This document shows, piece by piece, positions 54,401 through 63,447 of a stretch of DNA of 64,000 nt. The position numbers and the translations under genes were made by a program. Position 1 is the first letter of the stretch. Every line of letters begins with the position of its first letter. The DNA lies in the NCBI GenBank assembly GCA_040437565.1, contig JBDOQK010000062.1:124001-188000 (forward strand), given 5' to 3'. This stretch comes from Albugo candida (taxonomy: Eukaryota). The notes beneath the pieces are model-generated. The model worked only from the letters and a program-made list of their open reading frames with translations. It did not search any database and had not been told where the DNA came from.

Positions 54401-55550
54401 ATTTGCAGTTATTTCAGTTAATTGTTCAGCACTACCGAATTACCGTAATCGAATGAGAAAGCATTGCGAGACTAGGAATTTGTTGTGTATAGCCCACCCA
54501 TACGATGCTGGGTGCTTTGAGAATTCATTTATTGTCGTATTGCTTACGAAGATGTATGATATTCACTATTACAGCTTCCATCACTGGTATAGCTCTTAAC
54601 AATGAAGATATCACAGCGTAAGTGTATGGCAAAACGGGTGTGTGACTTTGGTAGTTTCGTTGGTCAAATTTCGGCTCCATATGCGGGACTCTACTATTAT
54701 TTCGACTCTAAATAGTATGTATGTGACGGTCGCAAAGCTCTCCGTTTGCCAGGATATATTTGGACAAGCGCGTTTTGTGTATCCATAACAAGGTCGACTG
54801 AATCAATGGAACAGAGAAGATAACTCGACGCAATCTCCACCAGGCTACAAATTACTCAAATTATATAGTGACTTCTCGATTTGCCGGATATTGCGTACCT
54901 CGCCTGATCAAATCATATCAGTACTTTAACTAGACAGGACTCATAGTTTTCTCTTCCTTTCGATAAGTATAGTCCATTGTGAACTTTCTAACAAAAATAA
55001 AGCCATAGCTTTTAATTCTAATGACGAGTCAACCCACTTGCGCAACGTAACGTCTTCTATGTAGGTAATCACAATGCACTACATCTAAAGCCATGGAAAT
55101 CATTGAGGTCTTAACGATCTGTAGCTCCAACGGTATCAAAACTGATTCATTTAACCGATACTTCCATATTTACTTTGATGATCCGGAGGAGCAGATTGAT
55201 GCAGTGGATGGGTCAATGAACACAGCGAAATAATCATTACGTGAATATCTCACTGAAGCTGGTTTTTGATCAATCACCTCTCGATAGCAACGTATTCCTC
55301 CAATGGAATGCAATTACTCTTTATTGCCGACTTAGTATGTTGACTCAGTACTCAAGTGTATCAATGACCTCTTCGTAACATTTACTTCTCTTTTCTTTGA
55401 TACAAAATGCCACACGGTACCGAGTCATCCACCCTCATATCCTCATGTATTACCGTATCCTTCCATATTCTTGGAGGGTCACAAATAAACTCAATCAGTC
55501 GACGTCGCTTCTCGGAAGAGTGTATATCGCCAGCTAGCACAACAACATCA

Positions 55551-56283
55551 ATGGCTCACACCGTACCCAAATCAGAGTATTCACGCTTCTTATCTCGCCA
55601 TTTGGATAATCCCACGTCAAATACATCTCTCACCAAACGAGCAAACCTCACAACTCGGCGTCCTCGACGACAGGAGTTACCTGAAGATAAAAAGAAGCAA
55701 CTTAAGGATGCATTCGACCTTTTCGATACCGAGAAACAAGGCTCAATTGACTATCATGAGCTGAAGATACTGATGCGAGCACTAGGATTTACCGTCAGTA
55801 AGCAACGCGTCTTAGATTTGGTGAATGAAGTAGATGTGCATCGGAATGGCCGAGTAACTTTCAGCGACTATATGGAAATAAGTATGTGGATCGTTTGCTC
55901 TACGGGACGGATTATTTATTATCTCGTAGTGCGAAGGGAAGTGCTGGCACGCGATCCGGATGAAGAAATCACCAAAGTAGATTCTATCCAACTTTAAGCA
56001 TTTGTGGGATTTGACGAAAACCCTGAAACTTTTAGGCATTTCAGCTTTTTGATGAGGACGGGAGTGGCAAAATCAACTTACGGGTAAATATCATTAGTGA
56101 TGTATGATTTTATTGTCATGCTTTGCAACAATGTAGAAAATGAGACGAGTAGCAAAAGAGCTTGGCGAAACATTAGACGATGAAGAACTGCAAGCTATGA
56201 TCGATGAATTTGACGAGAATCAAGATGGTGAAATAGATTTAGATGAATTTAGAGCGATTATGAAAGAATCTGATGACCTATGA
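55551..56283 (+). CDS. CETN3: Centrin (centrin-3/Cdc31-like), 4 exons
   Basis: [29 protein letters not shown] (YHELK is typical of centrin-3), [43 protein letters not shown]. Confidence 0.85.
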
Positions 56284-57003
56284 TTATTGGGGCGATGTTT
56301 ACTCGGGATGCTGGCCTCATTCATAGTGTTTAAAAACACGTGCTGATTGACCTATACAAATTAAGAAACTCGCTACAAGTGCCTTCTACCCATCACATAG
56401 ATACATAAATCGACGGCTTGATTACATTCATGTGACAACGAGTACCAATCCAGGTGTCGATTGTTTGACTAAAAATGGCCGATGAAAGGAATAGAATCCC
56501 ACCTTTTTTTCCTCAATTCGCTGTATGCGTTTGCTACTCCTCGACTTAGTAGCCAGAACCATCCAGTGAAGGATCAGGTAGCTCAACTTGAGCGAGTATA
56601 TCCCATTTTTGCATCTTAAGCGTACCGACATACTGCTCCGTTCACCACATACGATTGATACCGATAATTTAATACTGACGTCAGAGGGTTAGCAGCGTAT
56701 AAACGATCCAATTGATCGAATACTCGCTTTTCATTGGCCTTACCCTTCGTAAAGTAAAGGCGCATCTGATGTGCACCGATTTACGCGAGCAATTACTTCA
56801 TAGTATTGGCAATGAGCTTGTATANNNNNNNNNNNNNNNNNNNNNNNNNNNNNNNNNNNNNNNNNNNNNNNNNNNNNNNNNNNNNNNNNNNNNNNNNNNN
56901 NNNNNNNNNNNNNNNNNNNNNNNNATTGGCCTTACCCTTCGTAAAGTAAAGGCGCATCTGATGTGCACCGATTTACGCGAGAAATTACCTCATAGTATTG
57001 GCA

Positions 57004-60000
57004 ATGAGCTTGTATATAGATGCGAAAACGCCTATAATTCACGAAAACGCTTCAGAAAATCACAGAACAAGGTCCCATGAAACGCGGACGCACGAAATAC
57101 ACGCACAAGCTTCTGATCATTACGCCGCTACCGGATTGCAACAACGCGATACAGCGAGACGTCCGGTATACTCGCGAAGAAATGCGGTGCGATACAGAGA
57201 ATCCAGTCCATTATCGAGTGATAACAATTTTGAGCTTTTGGGCAAAGAACCGCATGTTCAAAAATATCTCGTGGCGCGTTCGTATCGACAAAATTCGTAC
57301 TTTGCGACAAAGTTACATCATTTCTCAATCATTTTAACTACAATAATGGCCTGTGCAGTGTGCTTTTATTACCTTCATAACGATAAAAGTATCGTGCTTA
57401 ATCAAGAATGGCCTACTCAGCATGGATTTCGTCTTACTGATCCGAAGCGTTTCTACACTTTTCAAGCCACTGGATGCGAGAGTATGATTGGATTTGCAGC
57501 ATTGACCTATCACACATTTCCAGCCCTTCTCATTCTTGGACTTCCAGGCTCCGGGCTACGTCTATTTGAGCCATTTCATCGTCAGCAAGGATACCAGGAA
57601 TCACGTACGCGAGTCAAACTCAAACGAAAACTCATGTTTCAAGTCTGTGAAATGGTTGGCGTGCTTGTTTTCCTCTTCAGCTTTGTCCTGTTTCTCTTTT
57701 TCTGGTACATGGTGTTTCGCCATGCTGCATTTTCATGCCCCATCCTCTCCGTTCATGTGTACTGTTTCCTGGCGTTTCTTTGCTTTATCGCCATTTTTGT
57801 GGAATTATGTCTTTTTGCCCGTTATCGCGAACATATCAAAATGACACTAGGGGCTTTCAAAGAGAGCGATCAAACCGGGAATGTTCGTCACTTATTCGGT
57901 AAAACCGAACGAAAAACTTCAACTTCAACTTCAACGCGCGCACTCATTCACGCATGTCGGAACCGCATTTTTCGAGCGACTCGCTCGGGTGATTCCGCCG
58001 AACTGGAACGTGCGATAGTATACGCGAAGGAACGGCTACCAGATTTTCCTTCGCGGTATTATGGTAACGTGGTCATTTACTTTACATTCTTCAGTCTTTC
58101 AGAAAAAAATCCAATGCATATGGCAGCTTATAACGGACACGTGGAAGCTATGAAGTTGCTTCTTTCGTATGGTTTTGATGTTAACGCGTTCGATAAATTC
58201 AGTCGCGTGCGATTTAGTACCGGCGATCTCTTTTGGTACTTTGCGCAGTTTTTTGTATCGAAACCGGTAGACGTCGAGCAAGATCAAGCGGTATCGGTTT
58301 TAAAAAGCACATTGGTATCACCGTTACATTGTGCAGTAACTTCAGGGCAATCGGAAGCTGTTCGATGGCTTCTACAGCATGGAGCTGATGCCAACTTGGT
58401 TGCGGTATCTTCGTATCGGTCCGAGCGCGTACCTCCGATATTCCTGGCAGACCATCCGGAAATCGTTCGCATCCTTATTGAGCATGGGGCTAATATATTA
58501 ATGGTACCAGATCCGGGGCATATGAATACAGTGACTGTATTACAGATGGCGTATATGCGAAGCGATCGCGCAGTGGAACATGAGCTGGAAGAACATGGAG
58601 GAGATGTAGCTCTGACTCCGTTTCATGCTGCAGCAGCGTTGGATGATGTGGTAGCCGTACGAAAATTTATACGGGATGGAATTGATGTGAATTGTCTCGG
58701 AGAGCAAGGATATCTTGGTATGAATCGACGGACACCGTTGCATTGGGCTGTGGTGAATAACGCGAAGAATGTGGTTGAGATTCTATTGCATTCGAATGCA
58801 GATCCCAATTTTCAAGATGTGCGAGGACGGACACCGTTACATTGGGCTGCTCGTCTCAACCACGCGGAAATTATATCGTGTCTTCTGTCTTATGATGCAA
58901 ATGTCAACATTGTCGATCAAGATGCGATGACTCCTCTTATTTGTGCTGCATTTGGGAGAAATGTTGGACGAGAATTATTCACAGATCTGGTCAACAAGGG
59001 AGCTAATATCAACTATGCGTTACCGACTACGGGCGATACGGCTTTACATATTGCAATACGATGTGAAAATAAAAATACAGCATTGGCAATCTTAGCAAGT
59101 GGAGGAATGATTCTCACTCTGAACAGAGAAGGTGTGCGTCCAATTGACTGCACAACATCAACCAAGTTCCAGTATGAAGTCAAACAAGCAGCAGGACATC
59201 GCGATGTGATGATAAGCTATACACATACTCACATTGAGTTTGCAAAGAAATTACGAAAGTCCCTTGAAGATAATCACGTCACAACTTGGCTGGACTTGAT
59301 GGATCCAAGCGGTATCGGTGGTGGAACTATATGGCGAGCAGAAATTGCTCGTGGGATCACGAATGCTGCTTTGGTGGTCTGCATACTGGCGGAAGACTAC
59401 GCTGAATCAGACTGGTGCCTAAAAGAGCTGGCACTGGCAAAGCAAGTTGGTACTCCAATATTGGCTGTTTCGACTGAAAATGTCACCATCGGTGAAGATC
59501 TACAGGTTTACTTATACACTCGCCAGATGATTCCATTTGAGCCAGCCATTATAGCTACCAAACGCAACATACTAAACAGTCGGCTAATCGAGTATGAATA
59601 CGATGAGTTTCAGTACGCCAACCAATTCCGCTTGCTACTCGATGGTGTACGCGACGAAATTGAGAAGAATCGAAAGAATGTGTTGTGTCGGAATATGCGA
59701 TTGCAACAAAACGCAAATAATTCGACTATCGTGACTATGATGCAGAACAGAATGCCTAACAAGGTACACGTAGATGCATCCATGGGTTCCAACCAATTTG
59801 TATTCATATCACATGGTGATAAGCATGCGCGCTTTGTTGACCGACTAAGTCGAGCACTCACCGAGAAGAAAGTGTTGTGTTATGTGGATCGATACGTGAG
59901 CAACATCTCGGAGAGTGGAGACGTAGCGGATCGCATTCACGCGGCAAAGGAGGCGATCTTGAAATGTTCTTGCTTTGTTGTCATTCTATCGGATAGCACA

Positions 60001-60345
60001 GTCAACTGTGACTTCTTGACGGATCAGCTCGCGTTTGCTGAAGACAAAGCAAAACCGATTTTTCCAATCATTTTGAATAAGATCGAAGTTGGCTTGGACA
60101 AGAATTACACGTTGGCTCGCACGGAACTGTATCATTTCATTATGAATGGGCTTGGATTCAAATCAAGCTTACAAAACTTGTTAACTGGATTGATGACGCA
60201 CTACATTGCAGCAAATAGTCTCAACGACGACATTTCTGAGATCCTAGGCAAATCATATGCTACGCCAACTCTGATCGGAAACGGGTTCACGGAATCATAT
60301 TCCATACTTGAAGAGCATTCGATTCTGGGCGCTTCGTCGGAGTGA
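57004..60345 (+). CDS. Membrane protein with 4 TM helices, ankyrin repeats and two TIR (TIR_2-like) domains
   Basis: TMs at about 57316-57375, 57484-57549, 57631-57717 and 57739-57819. Ankyrin repeats about 58100-59150 (NPMHMAA, SPLHCAV, TPFHAAA, TPLHWAV, GRTPLHWAA, TPLICAA, GDTALHIA). TIR1 DVMISY..WLD..WCLKELALA (about 59200-59650). TIR2 FVFISH..YVD..FLTDQLAFA..PIFPI (about 59795-60200). Intronless. The ORF track starts at TTG 56998; the first ATG is 57004. Confidence 0.9.
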   Translation: MSLYIDAKTPIIHENASENHRTRSHETRTHEIHAQASDHYAATGLQQRDTARRPVYSRRNAVRYRESSPLSSDNNFELLGKEPHVQKYLVARSYRQNSYFATKLHHFSIILTTIMACAVCFYYLHNDKSIVLNQEWPTQHGFRLTDPKRFYTFQATGCESMIGFAALTYHTFPALLILGLPGSGLRLFEPFHRQQGYQESRTRVKLKRKLMFQVCEMVGVLVFLFSFVLFLFFWYMVFRHAAFSCPILSVHVYCFLAFLCFIAIFVELCLFARYREHIKMTLGAFKESDQTGNVRHLFGKTERKTSTSTSTRALIHACRNRIFRATRSGDSAELERAIVYAKERLPDFPSRYYGNVVIYFTFFSLSEKNPMHMAAYNGHVEAMKLLLSYGFDVNAFDKFSRVRFSTGDLFWYFAQFFVSKPVDVEQDQAVSVLKSTLVSPLHCAVTSGQSEAVRWLLQHGADANLVAVSSYRSERVPPIFLADHPEIVRILIEHGANILMVPDPGHMNTVTVLQMAYMRSDRAVEHELEEHGGDVALTPFHAAAALDDVVAVRKFIRDGIDVNCLGEQGYLGMNRRTPLHWAVVNNAKNVVEILLHSNADPNFQDVRGRTPLHWAARLNHAEIISCLLSYDANVNIVDQDAMTPLICAAFGRNVGRELFTDLVNKGANINYALPTTGDTALHIAIRCENKNTALAILASGGMILTLNREGVRPIDCTTSTKFQYEVKQAAGHRDVMISYTHTHIEFAKKLRKSLEDNHVTTWLDLMDPSGIGGGTIWRAEIARGITNAALVVCILAEDYAESDWCLKELALAKQVGTPILAVSTENVTIGEDLQVYLYTRQMIPFEPAIIATKRNILNSRLIEYEYDEFQYANQFRLLLDGVRDEIEKNRKNVLCRNMRLQQNANNSTIVTMMQNRMPNKVHVDASMGSNQFVFISHGDKHARFVDRLSRALTEKKVLCYVDRYVSNISESGDVADRIHAAKEAILKCSCFVVILSDSTVNCDFLTDQLAFAEDKAKPIFPIILNKIEVGLDKNYTLARTELYHFIMNGLGFKSSLQNLLTGLMTHYIAANSLNDDISEILGKSYATPTLIGNGFTESYSILEEHSILGASSE

Positions 60346-60724
60346 GAACAGAAGACCTACCTTGGAAATTCGGATCGCTGTGCGAAACAGGCTCTATCGT
60401 GCTTTGTGACGAAGTCGATCGCCGACTTTGCTGGGGTTTACGCCAAATAGTGATACATTCGACGATCATTCACACTACGCTGGAGATAATCTCGCTCAAT
60501 GAGGCTTTCGATACGCAATTTGATTAGCTGAGGAGATGGTGTGAATCGTCCGGTCATTTGCCTCACAACTTCAGCAATCAAATGACTNNNNNNNNNNNNN
60601 NNNNNNNNNNNNNNNNNNNNNNNNNNNNNNNNNNNNNNNNNNNNNNNNNNNNNNNNNNNNNNNNNNNNNNNNNNNNNNNNNNNNNNNGCTTTGTGACGAA
60701 GTCGATCGCCGACTTTGCTGGGGT

Positions 60725-63447
60725 TTACGCCAAATAGTGATACATTCGACGATCATTCACACTACGCTGGAGATAATCTCGCTCAATGAGGCTTTCGATA
60801 CGCAATTTGATTAGCTGAGGAGATGGTGTGAATCGTCCGGTCATTTGCCTCACAACTTCAGCAATCAAATGACTATGTTCCATATGTCTTCTTGCCTTCA
60901 TCACTCGGACAATCACTGCTTCTACCGTACAAAAAAACACAATCAGCGGTTAAGAAAACAGGCAGAGTCAATGGATTGGCATCAAAATTCGAATCACTGA
61001 AAGGATATAAATGCTTTCGATCTTCAGCAACTGTTGCTGGAAGTTGAGTTTGATCAATTTGCTTCTCATCGCCACCGTAGACAGCATTCAGCATCAAAGA
61101 TGTCTCTTTCTGCGAAATCAATGGAATACGGACACGATAGAGTTTGCTTTGATACTCTTCGTTCAATGTGAATACATCATCAAGATCAATTCGCTTCCCT
61201 TTGGAGCTTTTTAACAAAATTCGAAACTTCGGGGTGCAAAGCGAAATCAAATGGCGTTTCAGCTCATGTTCGTGAATCTGCGTTTGCTCCAGAATCTGCT
61301 TGAACGACCAACATGTGTCCGAATTGAACATCAACAGAATATAAGCCTGATAGGTCGACACATTGAATTCATGGATTCTGTCTCCGTTGTTTCTCTGAAA
61401 GCGTGCTCGAATATCCACAGAGCCTAATTGAGTCGCCCACGTCAGCTTCCGGCCATTATGACGTGACACATAGAAGTTTTCAAAGCTTTCAATCAGTTGC
61501 TTTAGCTCAGCTGGCACATCTGAAATAGATGGAGGAGAAATCGGCCAGAAACCACTCGTAAGGATGTGAACATGGAGCTGTGCAGAAGTCGTATCCATAT
61601 CGGCCGCTTTATCCGAAATTGGGCGTTTTGATTGTGCCTTACGATACATTCCCATGATATCTTTTGACACGTTGATGTCTTTAAACATTCCCTCCAACTT
61701 GGAAGTGAATTGATATCCACATTCTTCTCTCAATTTGGTTATAACCATTCGTTCTGCTTCATCACTGGCGCCACGTTCCCTCAACAATCGCCTGGCCAGA
61801 AGATTCTTATAATATTCTTCGAAAACGTCTTTATCTTGGAGATATCGAAACAATGCGATCACCTCACTCACTTGGTTCTTTAATTCCTCTTCATATCGAG
61901 CTTTGGAACGTAATAACTCATCGAGGTAATGAGCCAAGTAGCCGGAGCAAATGCTGTTGATATTCAGAAACGCTTCANNNNNNNNNNNNNNNNNNNNNNN
62001 NNNNNNNNNNNNNNNNNNNNNNNNNNNNNNNNNNNNNNNNNNNNNNNNNNNNNNNNNNNNNNNNNNNNNNNNNNNNNGATTCTTATAATATTCTTCGAAA
62101 ACGTCTTTATCTTGGAGATATCGAAACAATGCGATCACCTCACACACTTGGTTCTTTAATTCCTCTTCATATCGAGCTTTGGAACGCAATAACTCATCGA
62201 GGTAATGAGCCAAGTAGCCGGAGCAAATGCTGTTGATATTCAGAAACGCTTCAAAGCCTCGTTTGATACTTTTATGGAATTCTGGATCTTCTTGGAAACA
62301 TCGTTGCCAGAAAGTGATAAATGGCTTTCGAAGATTCAAGATCTGGTCCACAAATTGTCTTGAATCTACAGCGGTTTCCGGCTTCAATTGAGCTTGGACG
62401 TACTGCTCTCCATTATGCTTTATGTAGCCATACACACTTTCGGTCATATTCTTTAGTGTCTGTGGAATTCGACGAAAGAGGAGGTACATCCGTCGCAACG
62501 AGTCCACGTTTCCATCACGGAACATGATCCAACACCCCGAATTGACTTGATCGGTCAGAAGTTTCGCCTGTTTCTCAATCAATTCCGTCTCGACAATCCT
62601 TTTCAGCTTGTGATCGGTTGTGGAGTTTAGATAGTAAGATACCCGGAGAGCTTCTTCTTGGATCCGTTGATCGGCTTTGATGAGATACTCCCCACAAGGT
62701 GCATGATCCAAGTATCTCTGGGCTTCTTGGCGGTAGAACTCCAATGTCTCAGCAAGAAAGAATTTCTCGAACTCTTCTTCGTACACGCAGTTGGAATGGA
62801 TTCCAAGCATGACCAACATACAAAGCGTGTTTTTCATTGAAGCTCGGTCAATCAGTTCACCGTGACGTTCACATGCAATATTCTTCAGCAGAAGTGATCG
62901 AAGCCGGCTTTGGATCCTTCCATTTCGAACAACAACTGCGAGAAAGATTAACAAAGAGCGCTGATAGATTGGAGTTTTTCGTTTTTGTGGCACGTAATTA
63001 TGCTCCTACATTGACAAAATGTCATAAAATTGAAGAGTGTTGAGAACGCGTACCATATACATCAACACATCACGAATCATGGTGATGATCACTTGGTAAT
63101 CATTCCATTTCTGGTTCAGAAATGCCAGTAGATTTTCATTTGGAGTCAATGCGACCTCATCGGCCAACTCTTCGCACTGTTCTGTGATCACTTGGACAAC
63201 TCCATTGTAAAGCAAGTCTCCGTGCTTTTGCAGAACAAGATGGTATGAAGACCTGTAACATCAATAATGAATTGCAAACTCTCTCCGTATCGTCTCCTTA
63301 CCGAAAAAGTTCCTCAAAGGAAAGCTGACTCGCATTATGAGCGAAAATTTCACGCATTGCGCCCCGAAGAAACTCCCAAGTCTCTTGAGCGAGCGACGCG
63401 TCCATCCCCACTCGCTGGCGGTACGGTTTGATCACTAATTTTTTCAT
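60725..63447 (-). CDS. CUL3: Cullin-3, multi-exon, spans two gap duplications
   Basis: NASQLSFEELFR..YHLVLQKHG, MIRDVLMYM, LFRYLQDKDVFEEYYK, KLREECGYQFTSKLEGMFKD, HNGRKLTW, neddylation helix EAVIVRVMKARR..IESLIERDYL..YHYLA. A duplicate copy of the last exon ends at 60438. Confidence 0.95.
60927..61008 (-). other. U12-type (minor spliceosome) AT-AC intron in CUL3
   Basis: The 82-nt segment starts ATATCCTTT, contains TTTTCTTAACC and ends GTAC. Its removal restores the conserved DRKHL-VEAVIVRVMKAR frame. Confidence 0.88.

Follow-up and report, generated by a model that had tools for sequence, protein, structure and literature searches.

An oomycete 4TM-ankyrin protein with an unequal TIR pair: a candidate for NAD+-based signalling in Albugo candida

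What would a protein that joins four membrane helices, a set of ankyrin repeats and two TIR domains in a single chain do in an oomycete? TIR domains are now understood as enzymes that process nicotinamide adenine dinucleotide (NAD+) in bacteria, plants and animals; to our knowledge, almost nothing is known of them in protists. The question is raised by a gene in a stretch of 64,000 nucleotides from Albugo candida (GenBank assembly GCA_040437565.1, contig JBDOQK010000062.1, positions 124,001 to 188,000 of the forward strand), which is called the window below and in which all positions are counted. A sequence-only reading of the window had proposed that the gene encodes a membrane receptor which couples sensing to NAD+ cleavage, for example in innate immunity, in the recognition of non-self or in regulated cell death. 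The analysis reported here favours, at a probability of about 0.55, a membrane-anchored four-transmembrane (4TM)-ankyrin protein facing the cytosol, in which the first TIR domain (TIR1) would cleave NAD+ or make a signal, the second (TIR2) would be a non-catalytic partner and the whole would have a conserved signalling role.

The gene is real, conserved, already catalogued and uncharacterised. One uninterrupted open reading frame (ORF) on the + strand starts with ATG, runs to a TGA at 60343-60345 and encodes 1113 residues; it contains no internal stop and, in all four sequencing runs compared, no contig joint. An identical Albugo candida protein is held in public databases (NCBI, UniRef) as "unnamed protein product / TIR domain-containing protein". 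From N to C terminus the protein consists of a hydrophilic tail, four hydrophobic helices, ankyrin repeats, TIR1, a helix and linker, TIR2 and a tail. In a Pfam scan of the whole protein Ank scored 148.2 bits in six stretches and TIR_2 95.4 bits in two, and no LRR, NB-ARC, SAM, ARM or death-fold domain was found (for LRR, none at E up to 1). Residues 1-100 are hydrophilic and hold no signal-peptide-like segment. This is the layout that the sequence-only reading had described: a single intronless frame of about 1113 residues, no signal peptide, four transmembrane helices, roughly 9-10 ankyrin repeats, a cysteine in each predicted outer loop and two tandem C-terminal TIR domains. Its remark that such an architecture is neither that of a TLR nor that of an NLR also stands, as the protein has four helices and two TIRs and no LRR or NB-ARC.

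In a homologue search 8000 candidates were scored, 1662 of which reached E up to 0.001. Residue counts are given over 120 relatives, and domain identities are mean pairwise values over 14 sequences. The features on which the proposed chemistry depends are as follows.

57004..60345, + strand: the whole ORF, intronless (1113-residue public twin; 3660-nucleotide contig of runs X1 and X6 from 56976, jointless).
59191..59613, + strand: TIR1, residues 730-870, the candidate catalytic domain (TIR_2 at 65.7 bits, fold, 74% identity).
59425..59427, + strand: GAG codon of Glu808, the glutamate that would be catalytic in TIR1 (118 relatives of 120 with E, the other two gapped).
59614..59784, + strand: a long conserved helix after TIR1, 'FRLLLDGVRDEIEK', then a disordered inter-TIR linker, residues 871-927 (from the model).
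59785..60201, + strand: TIR2, residues 928-1066, a TIR fold without the catalytic glutamate (TIR_2 at 36.9 bits, fold).
60025..60027, + strand: CAG codon of Gln1008, which corresponds in position to Glu808 (of 120 relatives, 117 with Q, one with S and two gapped).

Taken alone, each TIR domain exceeded the TIR_2 (PF13676) cut-off of 28 bits. A model of residues 722-1066 had a predicted local distance difference test score (pLDDT) of 75.7, with about 85-90 in the two cores and below 50 in the linker; the helix after TIR1 occupies model residues 147-183 and the values below 50 fall at 184-207. The fold of TIR1 matched those of the plant TIRs RPV1 (Z 14.9, root-mean-square deviation (rmsd) 2.5, 138 residues aligned) and RUN1 (Z 14.7) at 19-20% identity, while that of TIR2 matched Caenorhabditis elegans TIR-1 best (Z 16.6, rmsd 2.3, 131 aligned), followed by Hydra TRR-2 (Z 16.3), the human SARM1 TIR (16.1) and the SPARTA TIR (16.0). 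The sequence-only reading had called for a check of the TIR fold by profile and structure prediction; both domains came through it, with TIR_2 above cut-off and fold matches at Z 14.7-16.6.

The two domains differ at the catalytic position. The glutamate of helix alphaC is present in TIR1 (E808) and not in TIR2 (Q1008). Passages of Hurieva et al. (bioRxiv 10.64898/2026.04.20.719644) describe this helix glutamate as essential for NAD+ processing by TIRs, and parts of PMC13732033 likewise name it as the catalytic residue of NAD+-cleaving (NADase) TIRs. In phmmer alignments the TIR1 motif 'SDWCLKEL' pairs with the Cat1 sequence 'SDWCWDEL' (E 7e-6) and with 'SSWCLDEL', the form found in plant TIRs. 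Gln1008 stands opposite Glu808 both in a BLASTP alignment of TIR1 with TIR2 (E 6e-8) and in a profile-profile hhalign alignment (probability 96.3%, E 1.8e-9) whose profiles came from 118 and 117 sequences of the family. A further set comprised 96 sequences; in it the Glu808 column held 93 E and 3 gaps and the Gln1008 column 90 Q, 2 E, 1 T, 1 L and 2 gaps, the exceptions at Gln1008 coming from a divergent Saprolegniales clade that aligns poorly and from an Aphanomyces astaci protein considered below. Because Gln1008 is itself conserved (117 of 120), TIR2 appears to be maintained rather than decaying. The BB-loop region of TIR1, 'LDLMDPSGIGGG', was invariant in 14 of 14 sequences and contains an Asp and a Gly, its equivalence to solved BB-loops being by residue type only; a 2026 PNAS paper, in the part seen, gives the BB-loop Asp and Gly as crucial for NADase activity.

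Among the domains conservation is highest in TIR1, which is 60-84% identical across oomycetes and has a mean pairwise identity of 74%; next come the ankyrin region (58%), TIR2 (48%), the 4TM module (38%) and the tails (about 20%). When the contigs of other runs were compared with the window, the ORF differed at 20 positions, 14 of them synonymous and 6 non-synonymous. The eight differences that fall within the two TIRs are synonymous without exception, and the six non-synonymous ones are found in the tails (R21S and T27A in the N-terminal tail, I1091M and S1111L in the C-terminal tail), in the inter-TIR segment (one) and in one ankyrin repeat (one). The family thus appears to be under strong purifying selection.

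Judged by its sequence, TIR1 appears to carry every hallmark of an NAD+-cleaving TIR that was tested. NAD+ processing by TIR1 is favoured because of the E808 motif, the match of its fold to NADase TIRs, the Asp and Gly in its invariant BB-loop region and its place as the most conserved domain. The earlier proposal of NAD+ cleavage therefore divides: it is plausible for TIR1, which has the E808 motif, and is given up for TIR2, where an essentially invariant Gln occupies the Glu position.

In the mechanism preferred here, the four-helix membrane module would hold the ankyrin solenoid and the two TIRs at the cytosolic face of a membrane, a placement that fits the role since NAD+ is in the cytosol. 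TIR1 would cleave NAD+, either as an ADP-ribosyl cyclase or hydrolase, with a nucleotide such as cyclic ADP-ribose (cADPR) or an isomer as the signal produced, or as a local consumer of NAD+. TIR2, being non-catalytic, would help TIR1 to assemble into an active oligomer or complete an asymmetric TIR pair, or it would restrain TIR1. The ankyrin region would be the regulatory or the ligand- or partner-binding part, as ARM is in SARM1, and the protein would have a conserved signalling job in oomycete cell physiology. What the analysis establishes is the architecture, the folds, the Glu/Gln asymmetry, the conservation and the confinement of named relatives to oomycetes; that TIR1 is catalytic, what it makes, what TIR2 and the ankyrin repeats do, how the protein is oriented in the membrane and what it does for the organism are inferred.

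Several points weigh against this mechanism. A conserved glutamate is necessary, not sufficient, for TIR activity, and Glu808 is identified as the catalytic residue by sequence alignments and approximate structural ranges, not by an inspected superposition. The sequence similarity of TIR1 to solved TIRs is weak, the match to Cat1 at E 7e-6 being the best and those to plant TIRs lying at E 0.016-0.7. When TIR2 was compared with PDB sequences, the six matches at E up to 10 were all eIF3c (E 0.31 or worse) and none was a TIR, so that the identity of TIR2 as a TIR rests on Pfam and fold. The tandem model has a predicted template modelling score (pTM) of 0.49 and gives no confident arrangement of TIR1 and TIR2; a separate pairing prediction between TIR1 (residues 729-904) and TIR2 (residues 927-1066) scored 0.00 against a mark of 0.34 and counts neither way. 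Two relatives also have to be weighed. In P0183, a third A. candida paralogue of 1158 residues, the TIR1 glutamate is kept ('SECCLRELATAKEV') and the BB-loop is degenerate, 'LDYVELEKIEDTS' replacing the otherwise invariant 'LDLMDPSGIGGG', so that some family members may not be enzymes. The Aphanomyces astaci protein, P0162, has no TIR1; its gene model is unverified, so the support given by its NADAR domain, described below, is indirect. The sequencing runs which hint at transcription are recorded as 'RNA?', which is a guess. Finally, conservation as extreme as that of TIR1 is also compatible with a pure scaffold that binds many partners.

Such a scaffold or adaptor is the rival explanation that survives best. 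Neither TIR would be enzymatic, and the TIR pair and the ankyrin repeats would assemble a membrane signalling complex in the manner of the TIRs of MyD88, TLR and IL-1R. TIR2 is the domain that suits this role, as it lacks the catalytic glutamate and has MyD88 (Z 15.6), IL-1RAcPb (Z 15.6) and IL-18Rbeta (Z 15.5) among its structural neighbours. Highly conserved surface loops of TIR1, such as the invariant 'DPSGIGGG', would fit multiple fixed partners. TIR1 is harder to accommodate: Glu808 and its motif are kept in 118 of the 120 relatives with zero substitutions, the best structural matches of TIR1 are enzymatic plant TIRs and, according to passages of the preprint of Hurieva et al. (bioRxiv 10.64898/2026.04.20.719644), the scaffold TIRs of TLR and IL-1R are mostly without the glutamate. 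A pure scaffold is accordingly judged unlikely.

Whether the protein is a receptor turns on its membrane part and on the history of the family. The membrane features are as follows.

57256..57903, + strand: 4TM module, residues 85-300 (hydropathy, model and profile search).
57475..57477, + strand: TGC codon of Cys158 in outer loop 1 ('GCES'; 112 C, 1 Y and 7 gaps of 120).
57736..57738, + strand: TGC codon of Cys245 in outer loop 2 ('FSCP'; 115 C and 5 gaps of 120).

A Kyte-Doolittle profile with a window of 19 gave exactly four segments at or above 1.6 (residues 104-125, 162-181, 209-238 and 241-275), the next-highest peak anywhere in the protein being 1.44. An AlphaFold2 model of residues 85-300, based on an alignment of ten family members, showed four long helices at residues 99-124, 157-182, 210-238 and 248-299 (pLDDT 76.2, pTM 0.73). 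Basic residues (Lys plus Arg) concentrate in the N-terminal, TM2-3 and post-TM4 segments, which contain 7, 7 and 6, with 4 and 1 in the two outer loops. By the established positive-inside rule both termini, the ankyrin repeats and the TIRs would therefore face the cytosol. The outer loops are tiny, about 36 and 9 residues, which argues against recognition of large external ligands and makes the earlier label of 'receptor' doubtful.

A survey of orthologues across oomycetes, also called for by the sequence-only reading, returned named relatives in 14 genera among the matches listed, namely Globisporangium, Pythium, Phytophthora, Nothophytophthora, Plasmopara, Peronospora, Hyaloperonospora, Bremia, Peronosclerospora, Achlya, Saprolegnia, Thraustotheca, Aphanomyces and Albugo. 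Each of the best 120 of 1662 relatives that carries an organism name is an oomycete. In a FastTree tree of 96 named sequences (950 columns, midpoint-rooted, support values not read, unnamed rows left out) there were at least three old paralogue groups common to Albugo or Pythium with Phytophthora, with lengths of about 1250 residues (the group that contains the query), about 1100 and about 1550 residues, and separate Saprolegniales groups, one of them divergent. Most groups hold about one copy per species, with local expansions in Phytophthora and in a tandem array of Globisporangium. In the long forms the architecture is unchanged, the inter-TIR linker and the tail being longer. Albugo candida has at least three members (P0001, P0107 and P0183, from protein databases only). 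Four Globisporangium splendens paralogues were found on one 92,749-bp contig, and two paralogues share a contig in Pythium oligandrum (010456 and 010467) and in Bremia (001080 and 001092), an arrangement that points to linkage or tandem arrays among members of different paralogue groups.

These results bear on the proposal that the protein is a receptor for innate immunity, non-self recognition or cell death which acts through NAD+ cleavage, as do SARM1, Thoeris and the plant TNLs. Such a receptor would share the enzymatic evidence set out above for TIR1. Both TIRs gave weak matches to models of bacterial defence TIRs (PDC-S66, E 1.3e-8; SAVED_TIR; ThsB, E 7e-5 to 4e-4), and local tandem expansions of the kind seen in Globisporangium and Phytophthora are common for immune genes. 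The short outer loops, however, leave little surface for ligand recognition, the Pfam scan gave none of the NB-ARC, LRR, SAM or death-fold domains, and orthologue groups that are old and hold about one copy from each species, together with strong purifying selection, are unlike typical variable immune receptors. Given old, mostly single-copy groups, a TIR1 that is 60-84% identical and differences in the TIRs that are synonymous in eight cases out of eight, the family looks like the opposite of a fast-evolving receptor. The immune reading is therefore judged unsupported and unlikely, and a conserved signalling task is preferred to an arms-race immune receptor because of the old paralogue groups, near-single copy number and purifying selection.

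The 4TM module might also do more than hold the protein in place. Its lipid-facing helices are not the conserved part (38% mean identity). Conservation is found instead in cytosolic elements, 'LPGSG-R-FEPF-R' past TM2, 'K-KR...Q-CE' ahead of TM3 and 'FAR-REH-KM-LGAF-E' past TM4, where the fourth helix runs on as a conserved juxtamembrane (cytosolic) helix, 'FARYREHIKMTLGAFKESDQTG', with R273, R275, H277, K279, M280, L282-F285 and E287 invariant. This pattern appears to exceed the needs of a passive anchor; it does not reveal what the job of the module is.

When a profile of residues 85-300 (A2, ten sequences) was run against 1.84 billion representative proteins, 52 matched at E up to 0.001. 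Ten of the weakest matches that looked full-length were scanned with Pfam: six carried ankyrin and TIR_2 above cut-off, two ankyrin only and one neither, and the tenth was A. astaci P0162. Of 20 clusters from this search that were looked up, the 11 with an organism name were all oomycete and nine were without one. Since most of the matches scanned carry ankyrin and TIR_2, the 4TM module appears to travel with ankyrin-TIR, and among named sequences it appears to be confined to oomycetes. No Pfam family scored above cut-off on it (the best, DUF3810, 14.8 bits against 28), no PADLOC or NCBIfam family fell on that part, and a search of the ESM Atlas with it gave no usable match by features.

P0162, of 853 residues, was found through the 4TM profile alone. 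It has ankyrin repeats, a TIR2-like domain (TIR_2 sub-threshold at 23.6 bits) with Leu at the Gln1008 position and a C-terminal NADAR domain (171 bits), in what is an unverified gene model. NADAR is a family linked to NAD and ADP-ribose, and its presence ties the family scaffold only loosely to that chemistry.

A structure search with the 4TM model against 48,161 chains, in which the noise mark for helical bundles is Z of about 13, returned PRPH2/ROM1 (Z 10.3, rmsd 4.1, 152 aligned), LRRC8A (Z 8.4, rmsd 5.0, 176 aligned), synaptophysin (8.5), Fc-epsilon-RI beta (8.4), connexin-32 (7.9) and pannexin-2 (7.5), all below that mark, and soluble helix bundles scored like the 4TM membrane proteins. 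No fold family is therefore assigned to the module.

It is here that a channel coupled to an enzyme has to be weighed, namely an oligomeric 4TM pore with a topology like that of connexin, pannexin, LRRC8, Orai or MS4A, whose flux of ions or nucleotides would be coupled to the TIR product. Those proteins offer a likeness in their four helices, their cytosolic N and C termini and their outer-loop cysteines, and in LRRC8, too, a 4TM pore is combined with repeats at the C terminus. The conservation of the cytosolic loops and of the post-TM4 helix, well beyond what would be required of a simple anchor, and the presence of 4TM membrane proteins, from PRPH2/ROM1 down to pannexin-2, among the best rows of the structure search speak for such a pore. 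Against it, all of these Z values lie below the noise mark and soluble bundles score alike. With no sequence family matched in Pfam, PADLOC or NCBIfam and membrane helices that are themselves poorly conserved, a channel is considered quite improbable. The more elaborate case of a membrane 'chanzyme', in which an oligomeric 4TM pore with a cysteine pair and a gating-like helix would be opened through TIR2, acting with its Gln as a nucleotide-binding, non-cleaving sensor of NAD+ level or of the cADPR, ADP-ribose or isomer made by TIR1 at the mouth of the pore, is the least probable of all, though if true it would be a device for turning NAD+ into an ion (e.g. Ca2+) signal, with a design that neither TRPM2 nor any known TIR protein shares.

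The reading of the protein as a membrane-anchored, repeat-regulated NAD+-processing TIR protein also has to accommodate its remaining parts.

57004..57255, + strand: N-terminal tail, hydrophilic and poorly conserved, residues 1-84 (22% mean pairwise identity, 14 sequences).
57904..58008, + strand: Ser/Thr-rich linker, residues 301-335 (in-frame 6-nucleotide length polymorphism at 57915).
58009..59166, + strand: ankyrin-repeat region, residues 336-721, about 9-10 repeats (Pfam Ank, motif recurrence).
60202..60342, + strand: C-terminal tail, unconserved, residues 1067-1113 (18% mean identity).

The core motif of the ankyrin repeats, of the type xP[LIMF]H, recurs at residues 369, 439, 477, 538, 577, 610, 643 and 712; with these eight copies and looser ones near residues 511 and 679, a count of 9-10 repeats is fair. 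Between repeats 1 and 2 lies a conserved hydrophobic insert, 'FSTGDLFWYFAQ' (residues 404-415, positions 58213-58248), in which F410 and W411 are shared by all 14 sequences and which could be a membrane-touching or partner-binding loop. The polymorphism at 57915 (residues ~304-306) is a 6-nucleotide deletion in a Ser/Thr repeat in the X10 contig and marks a difference in length between isolates.

Some names attached to relatives were not followed. Several are called members of the "transient receptor potential Ca2 channel (TRP-CC) family", a name that was traced to the match of a single repeat: TIGR00870 'trp', which has a cut-off of 498.75 bits, reaches 25.5 bits, and does so only on the ankyrin repeat at residues 607-636. 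Two others, an 'RxLR effector candidate' and a 'mitochondrial chaperone BCS1-B', were set aside as annotation noise because both are full-length homologues of the same architecture.

The sequence-only reading had cautioned that the novelty of the architecture needed a literature check, and the caution was justified, since oomycete ankyrin-TIR proteins are already in print as uncharacterised. One line in Lapin et al. 2022 (Plant Cell, PMC9153377) states that some oomycetes have in common ankyrin repeat-TIR proteins that are uncharacterised. These belong to the same family as the present protein, in which ankyrin is followed by TIR and which is of oomycetes and has orthologues across them. The passages of that paper on these proteins contain no membrane module, tandem TIR, Glu/Gln asymmetry or function, and the first three of these are added here. 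In the open PMC and bioRxiv literature, supplements aside, no functional study of the family was found, and neither its 4TM module nor its Glu/Gln tandem came up. The asymmetry of E808 and Q1008, the position of TIR1 as the most conserved domain, the rarity of the 4TM module and the origin of the TRP names are new.

A functional parallel is with SARM1 and C. elegans TIR-1, which also place a helical-repeat domain N-terminal to a TIR and which provide the TIR2 fold matches at Z 16.1 and 16.6. Their logic, in which the repeat domain controls an NAD+-cleaving TIR, is likely to be the same in the A. candida protein. SARM1 differs in its arrangement (ARM-SAM-SAM-TIR), whereas the A. candida protein has no ARM or SAM in Pfam and has ankyrin repeats, a 4TM module and two TIRs, of which the C-terminal, SARM1-like TIR2 is the one without the catalytic glutamate. 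The plant TIRs (RUN1, RPV1, RPS4 and RPP1) share with TIR1 the motif 'S-x-W-C-L-x-E-L', and RPV1 and RUN1 are its best fold matches. In RPS4/RRS1, according to the passages seen, a catalytic TIR is paired with a partner TIR that lacks the glutamate and the BB-loop motif; the A. candida protein likewise has a TIR with the glutamate and one without it, in one chain, and that pair is the nearest precedent for the role proposed for TIR2. It differs from the plant proteins in having no NB-ARC or LRR and in holding two TIRs in one polypeptide through a helix and a disordered linker, and there was no evidence of receptors of the EDS1 type.

Among oomycete proteins, Hurieva et al. (bioRxiv 10.64898/2026.04.20.719644), in the part seen, report that a TIR of Phytophthora nicotianae made cADPR in E. 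coli and that mutation of the glutamate abolished this. Like TIR1, it is an oomycete TIR with the catalytic glutamate, and it may belong to the ankyrin-TIR family; the abbreviations in the figure legend list TM and no ankyrin. Dictyostelium TirE (bioRxiv 10.64898/2026.04.30.722052) is another protein from a protist that combines a repeat domain with two TIRs in tandem, likened here by description and not by homology; its repeats are RCC1, its TIRs are diverged and the passages seen describe no membrane module. With TRP Ca2+ channels the ankyrin repeats are the sole likeness, as the A. candida protein has four helices rather than six, places its membrane module ahead of the ankyrin repeats and has no ion-transport Pfam domain. 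Toll-like receptors, with an LRR ectodomain, one transmembrane helix and one TIR, are matched neither in the ectodomain nor in the numbers of helices (four) and TIRs (two). The protein is thus not a member of the SARM1, TLR, TNL or TRP families; by analogy its most likely mode of action is that of a TIR NADase under the control of repeats, as with SARM1 or the plant TIRs, while it belongs to neither.

Immediately upstream of the gene the assembly needs a caveat.

56733..57016, no strand: scaffold-join artefact around a 100-N gap at 56825-56924 (92-nucleotide copies at 56733-56824 and 56925-57016, with 2 mismatches).

The right-hand copy (56925-57016) carries the ATG context of the TIR gene, which calls for caution over the start codon; the public protein model is identical to the translation of the ORF. 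The gap and duplication look like an assembly join and not like biology. The window contains 11 N runs, each of exactly 100 N. At the gap at 60588-60687 the first 25 bases downstream recur at 60401, and in contigs of three runs 60394 is joined to 60688 with 2 letters between. The N runs with flanking repeats (56733-57016 and 60401-60874) are scaffold joins of overlapping contig ends, so that local distances are overstated. The upstream neighbour is an EF-hand (centrin- or calmodulin-like) ORF at 55407-55997 (+) and the downstream one a cullin-like gene with an ORF at 60873-62837 (-), convergent with the TIR gene; no functional link of either to the TIR gene was evident.

The runs compared are contigs tagged 'RNA?' (a guess) or '?', none being recorded as RNA. 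The X1/X6 contig begins 28 nucleotides before the ATG and spans the entire ORF, and the depth in these runs was 20.8 on the TIR gene against 59.4 on a neighbouring gene; the figures for X1 and X6 do not differ, and the two may be a single data set entered under both names. Within the cullin-like ORF an intron of 82 nucleotides at 60927-61008 (-) occurs in X1/X6 in both spliced and unspliced forms. Its signals are textbook U12-type AT-AC ones: 5' ATATCCTT, a branch-like TTCTTAAC about 20 nucleotides from the end and 3' AC. As the spliced form is present, X1/X6 probably contain RNA, and this gives a weak hint that the TIR gene is transcribed and intronless. In X10 a contig of 28.9 kb extends beyond both ends of the stretch compared; it is taken to be genomic because it crosses both of the adjoining intergenic regions. 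X5 covered 8 of 30 bins at low depth.

The family spans pathogens of crops and of animals, with no named relative outside the oomycetes among the matches listed. Its built-in Glu/Gln pair would be a natural one-chain model of how a catalytic and a non-catalytic TIR cooperate. The question of what TIR1 makes is directly testable, given that reporter and liquid chromatography-mass spectrometry assays for TIR products exist and that one oomycete TIR has been reported active. If TIR1 does make a signal of the cADPR type at the membrane, the family would represent a conserved signalling pathway specific to oomycetes.

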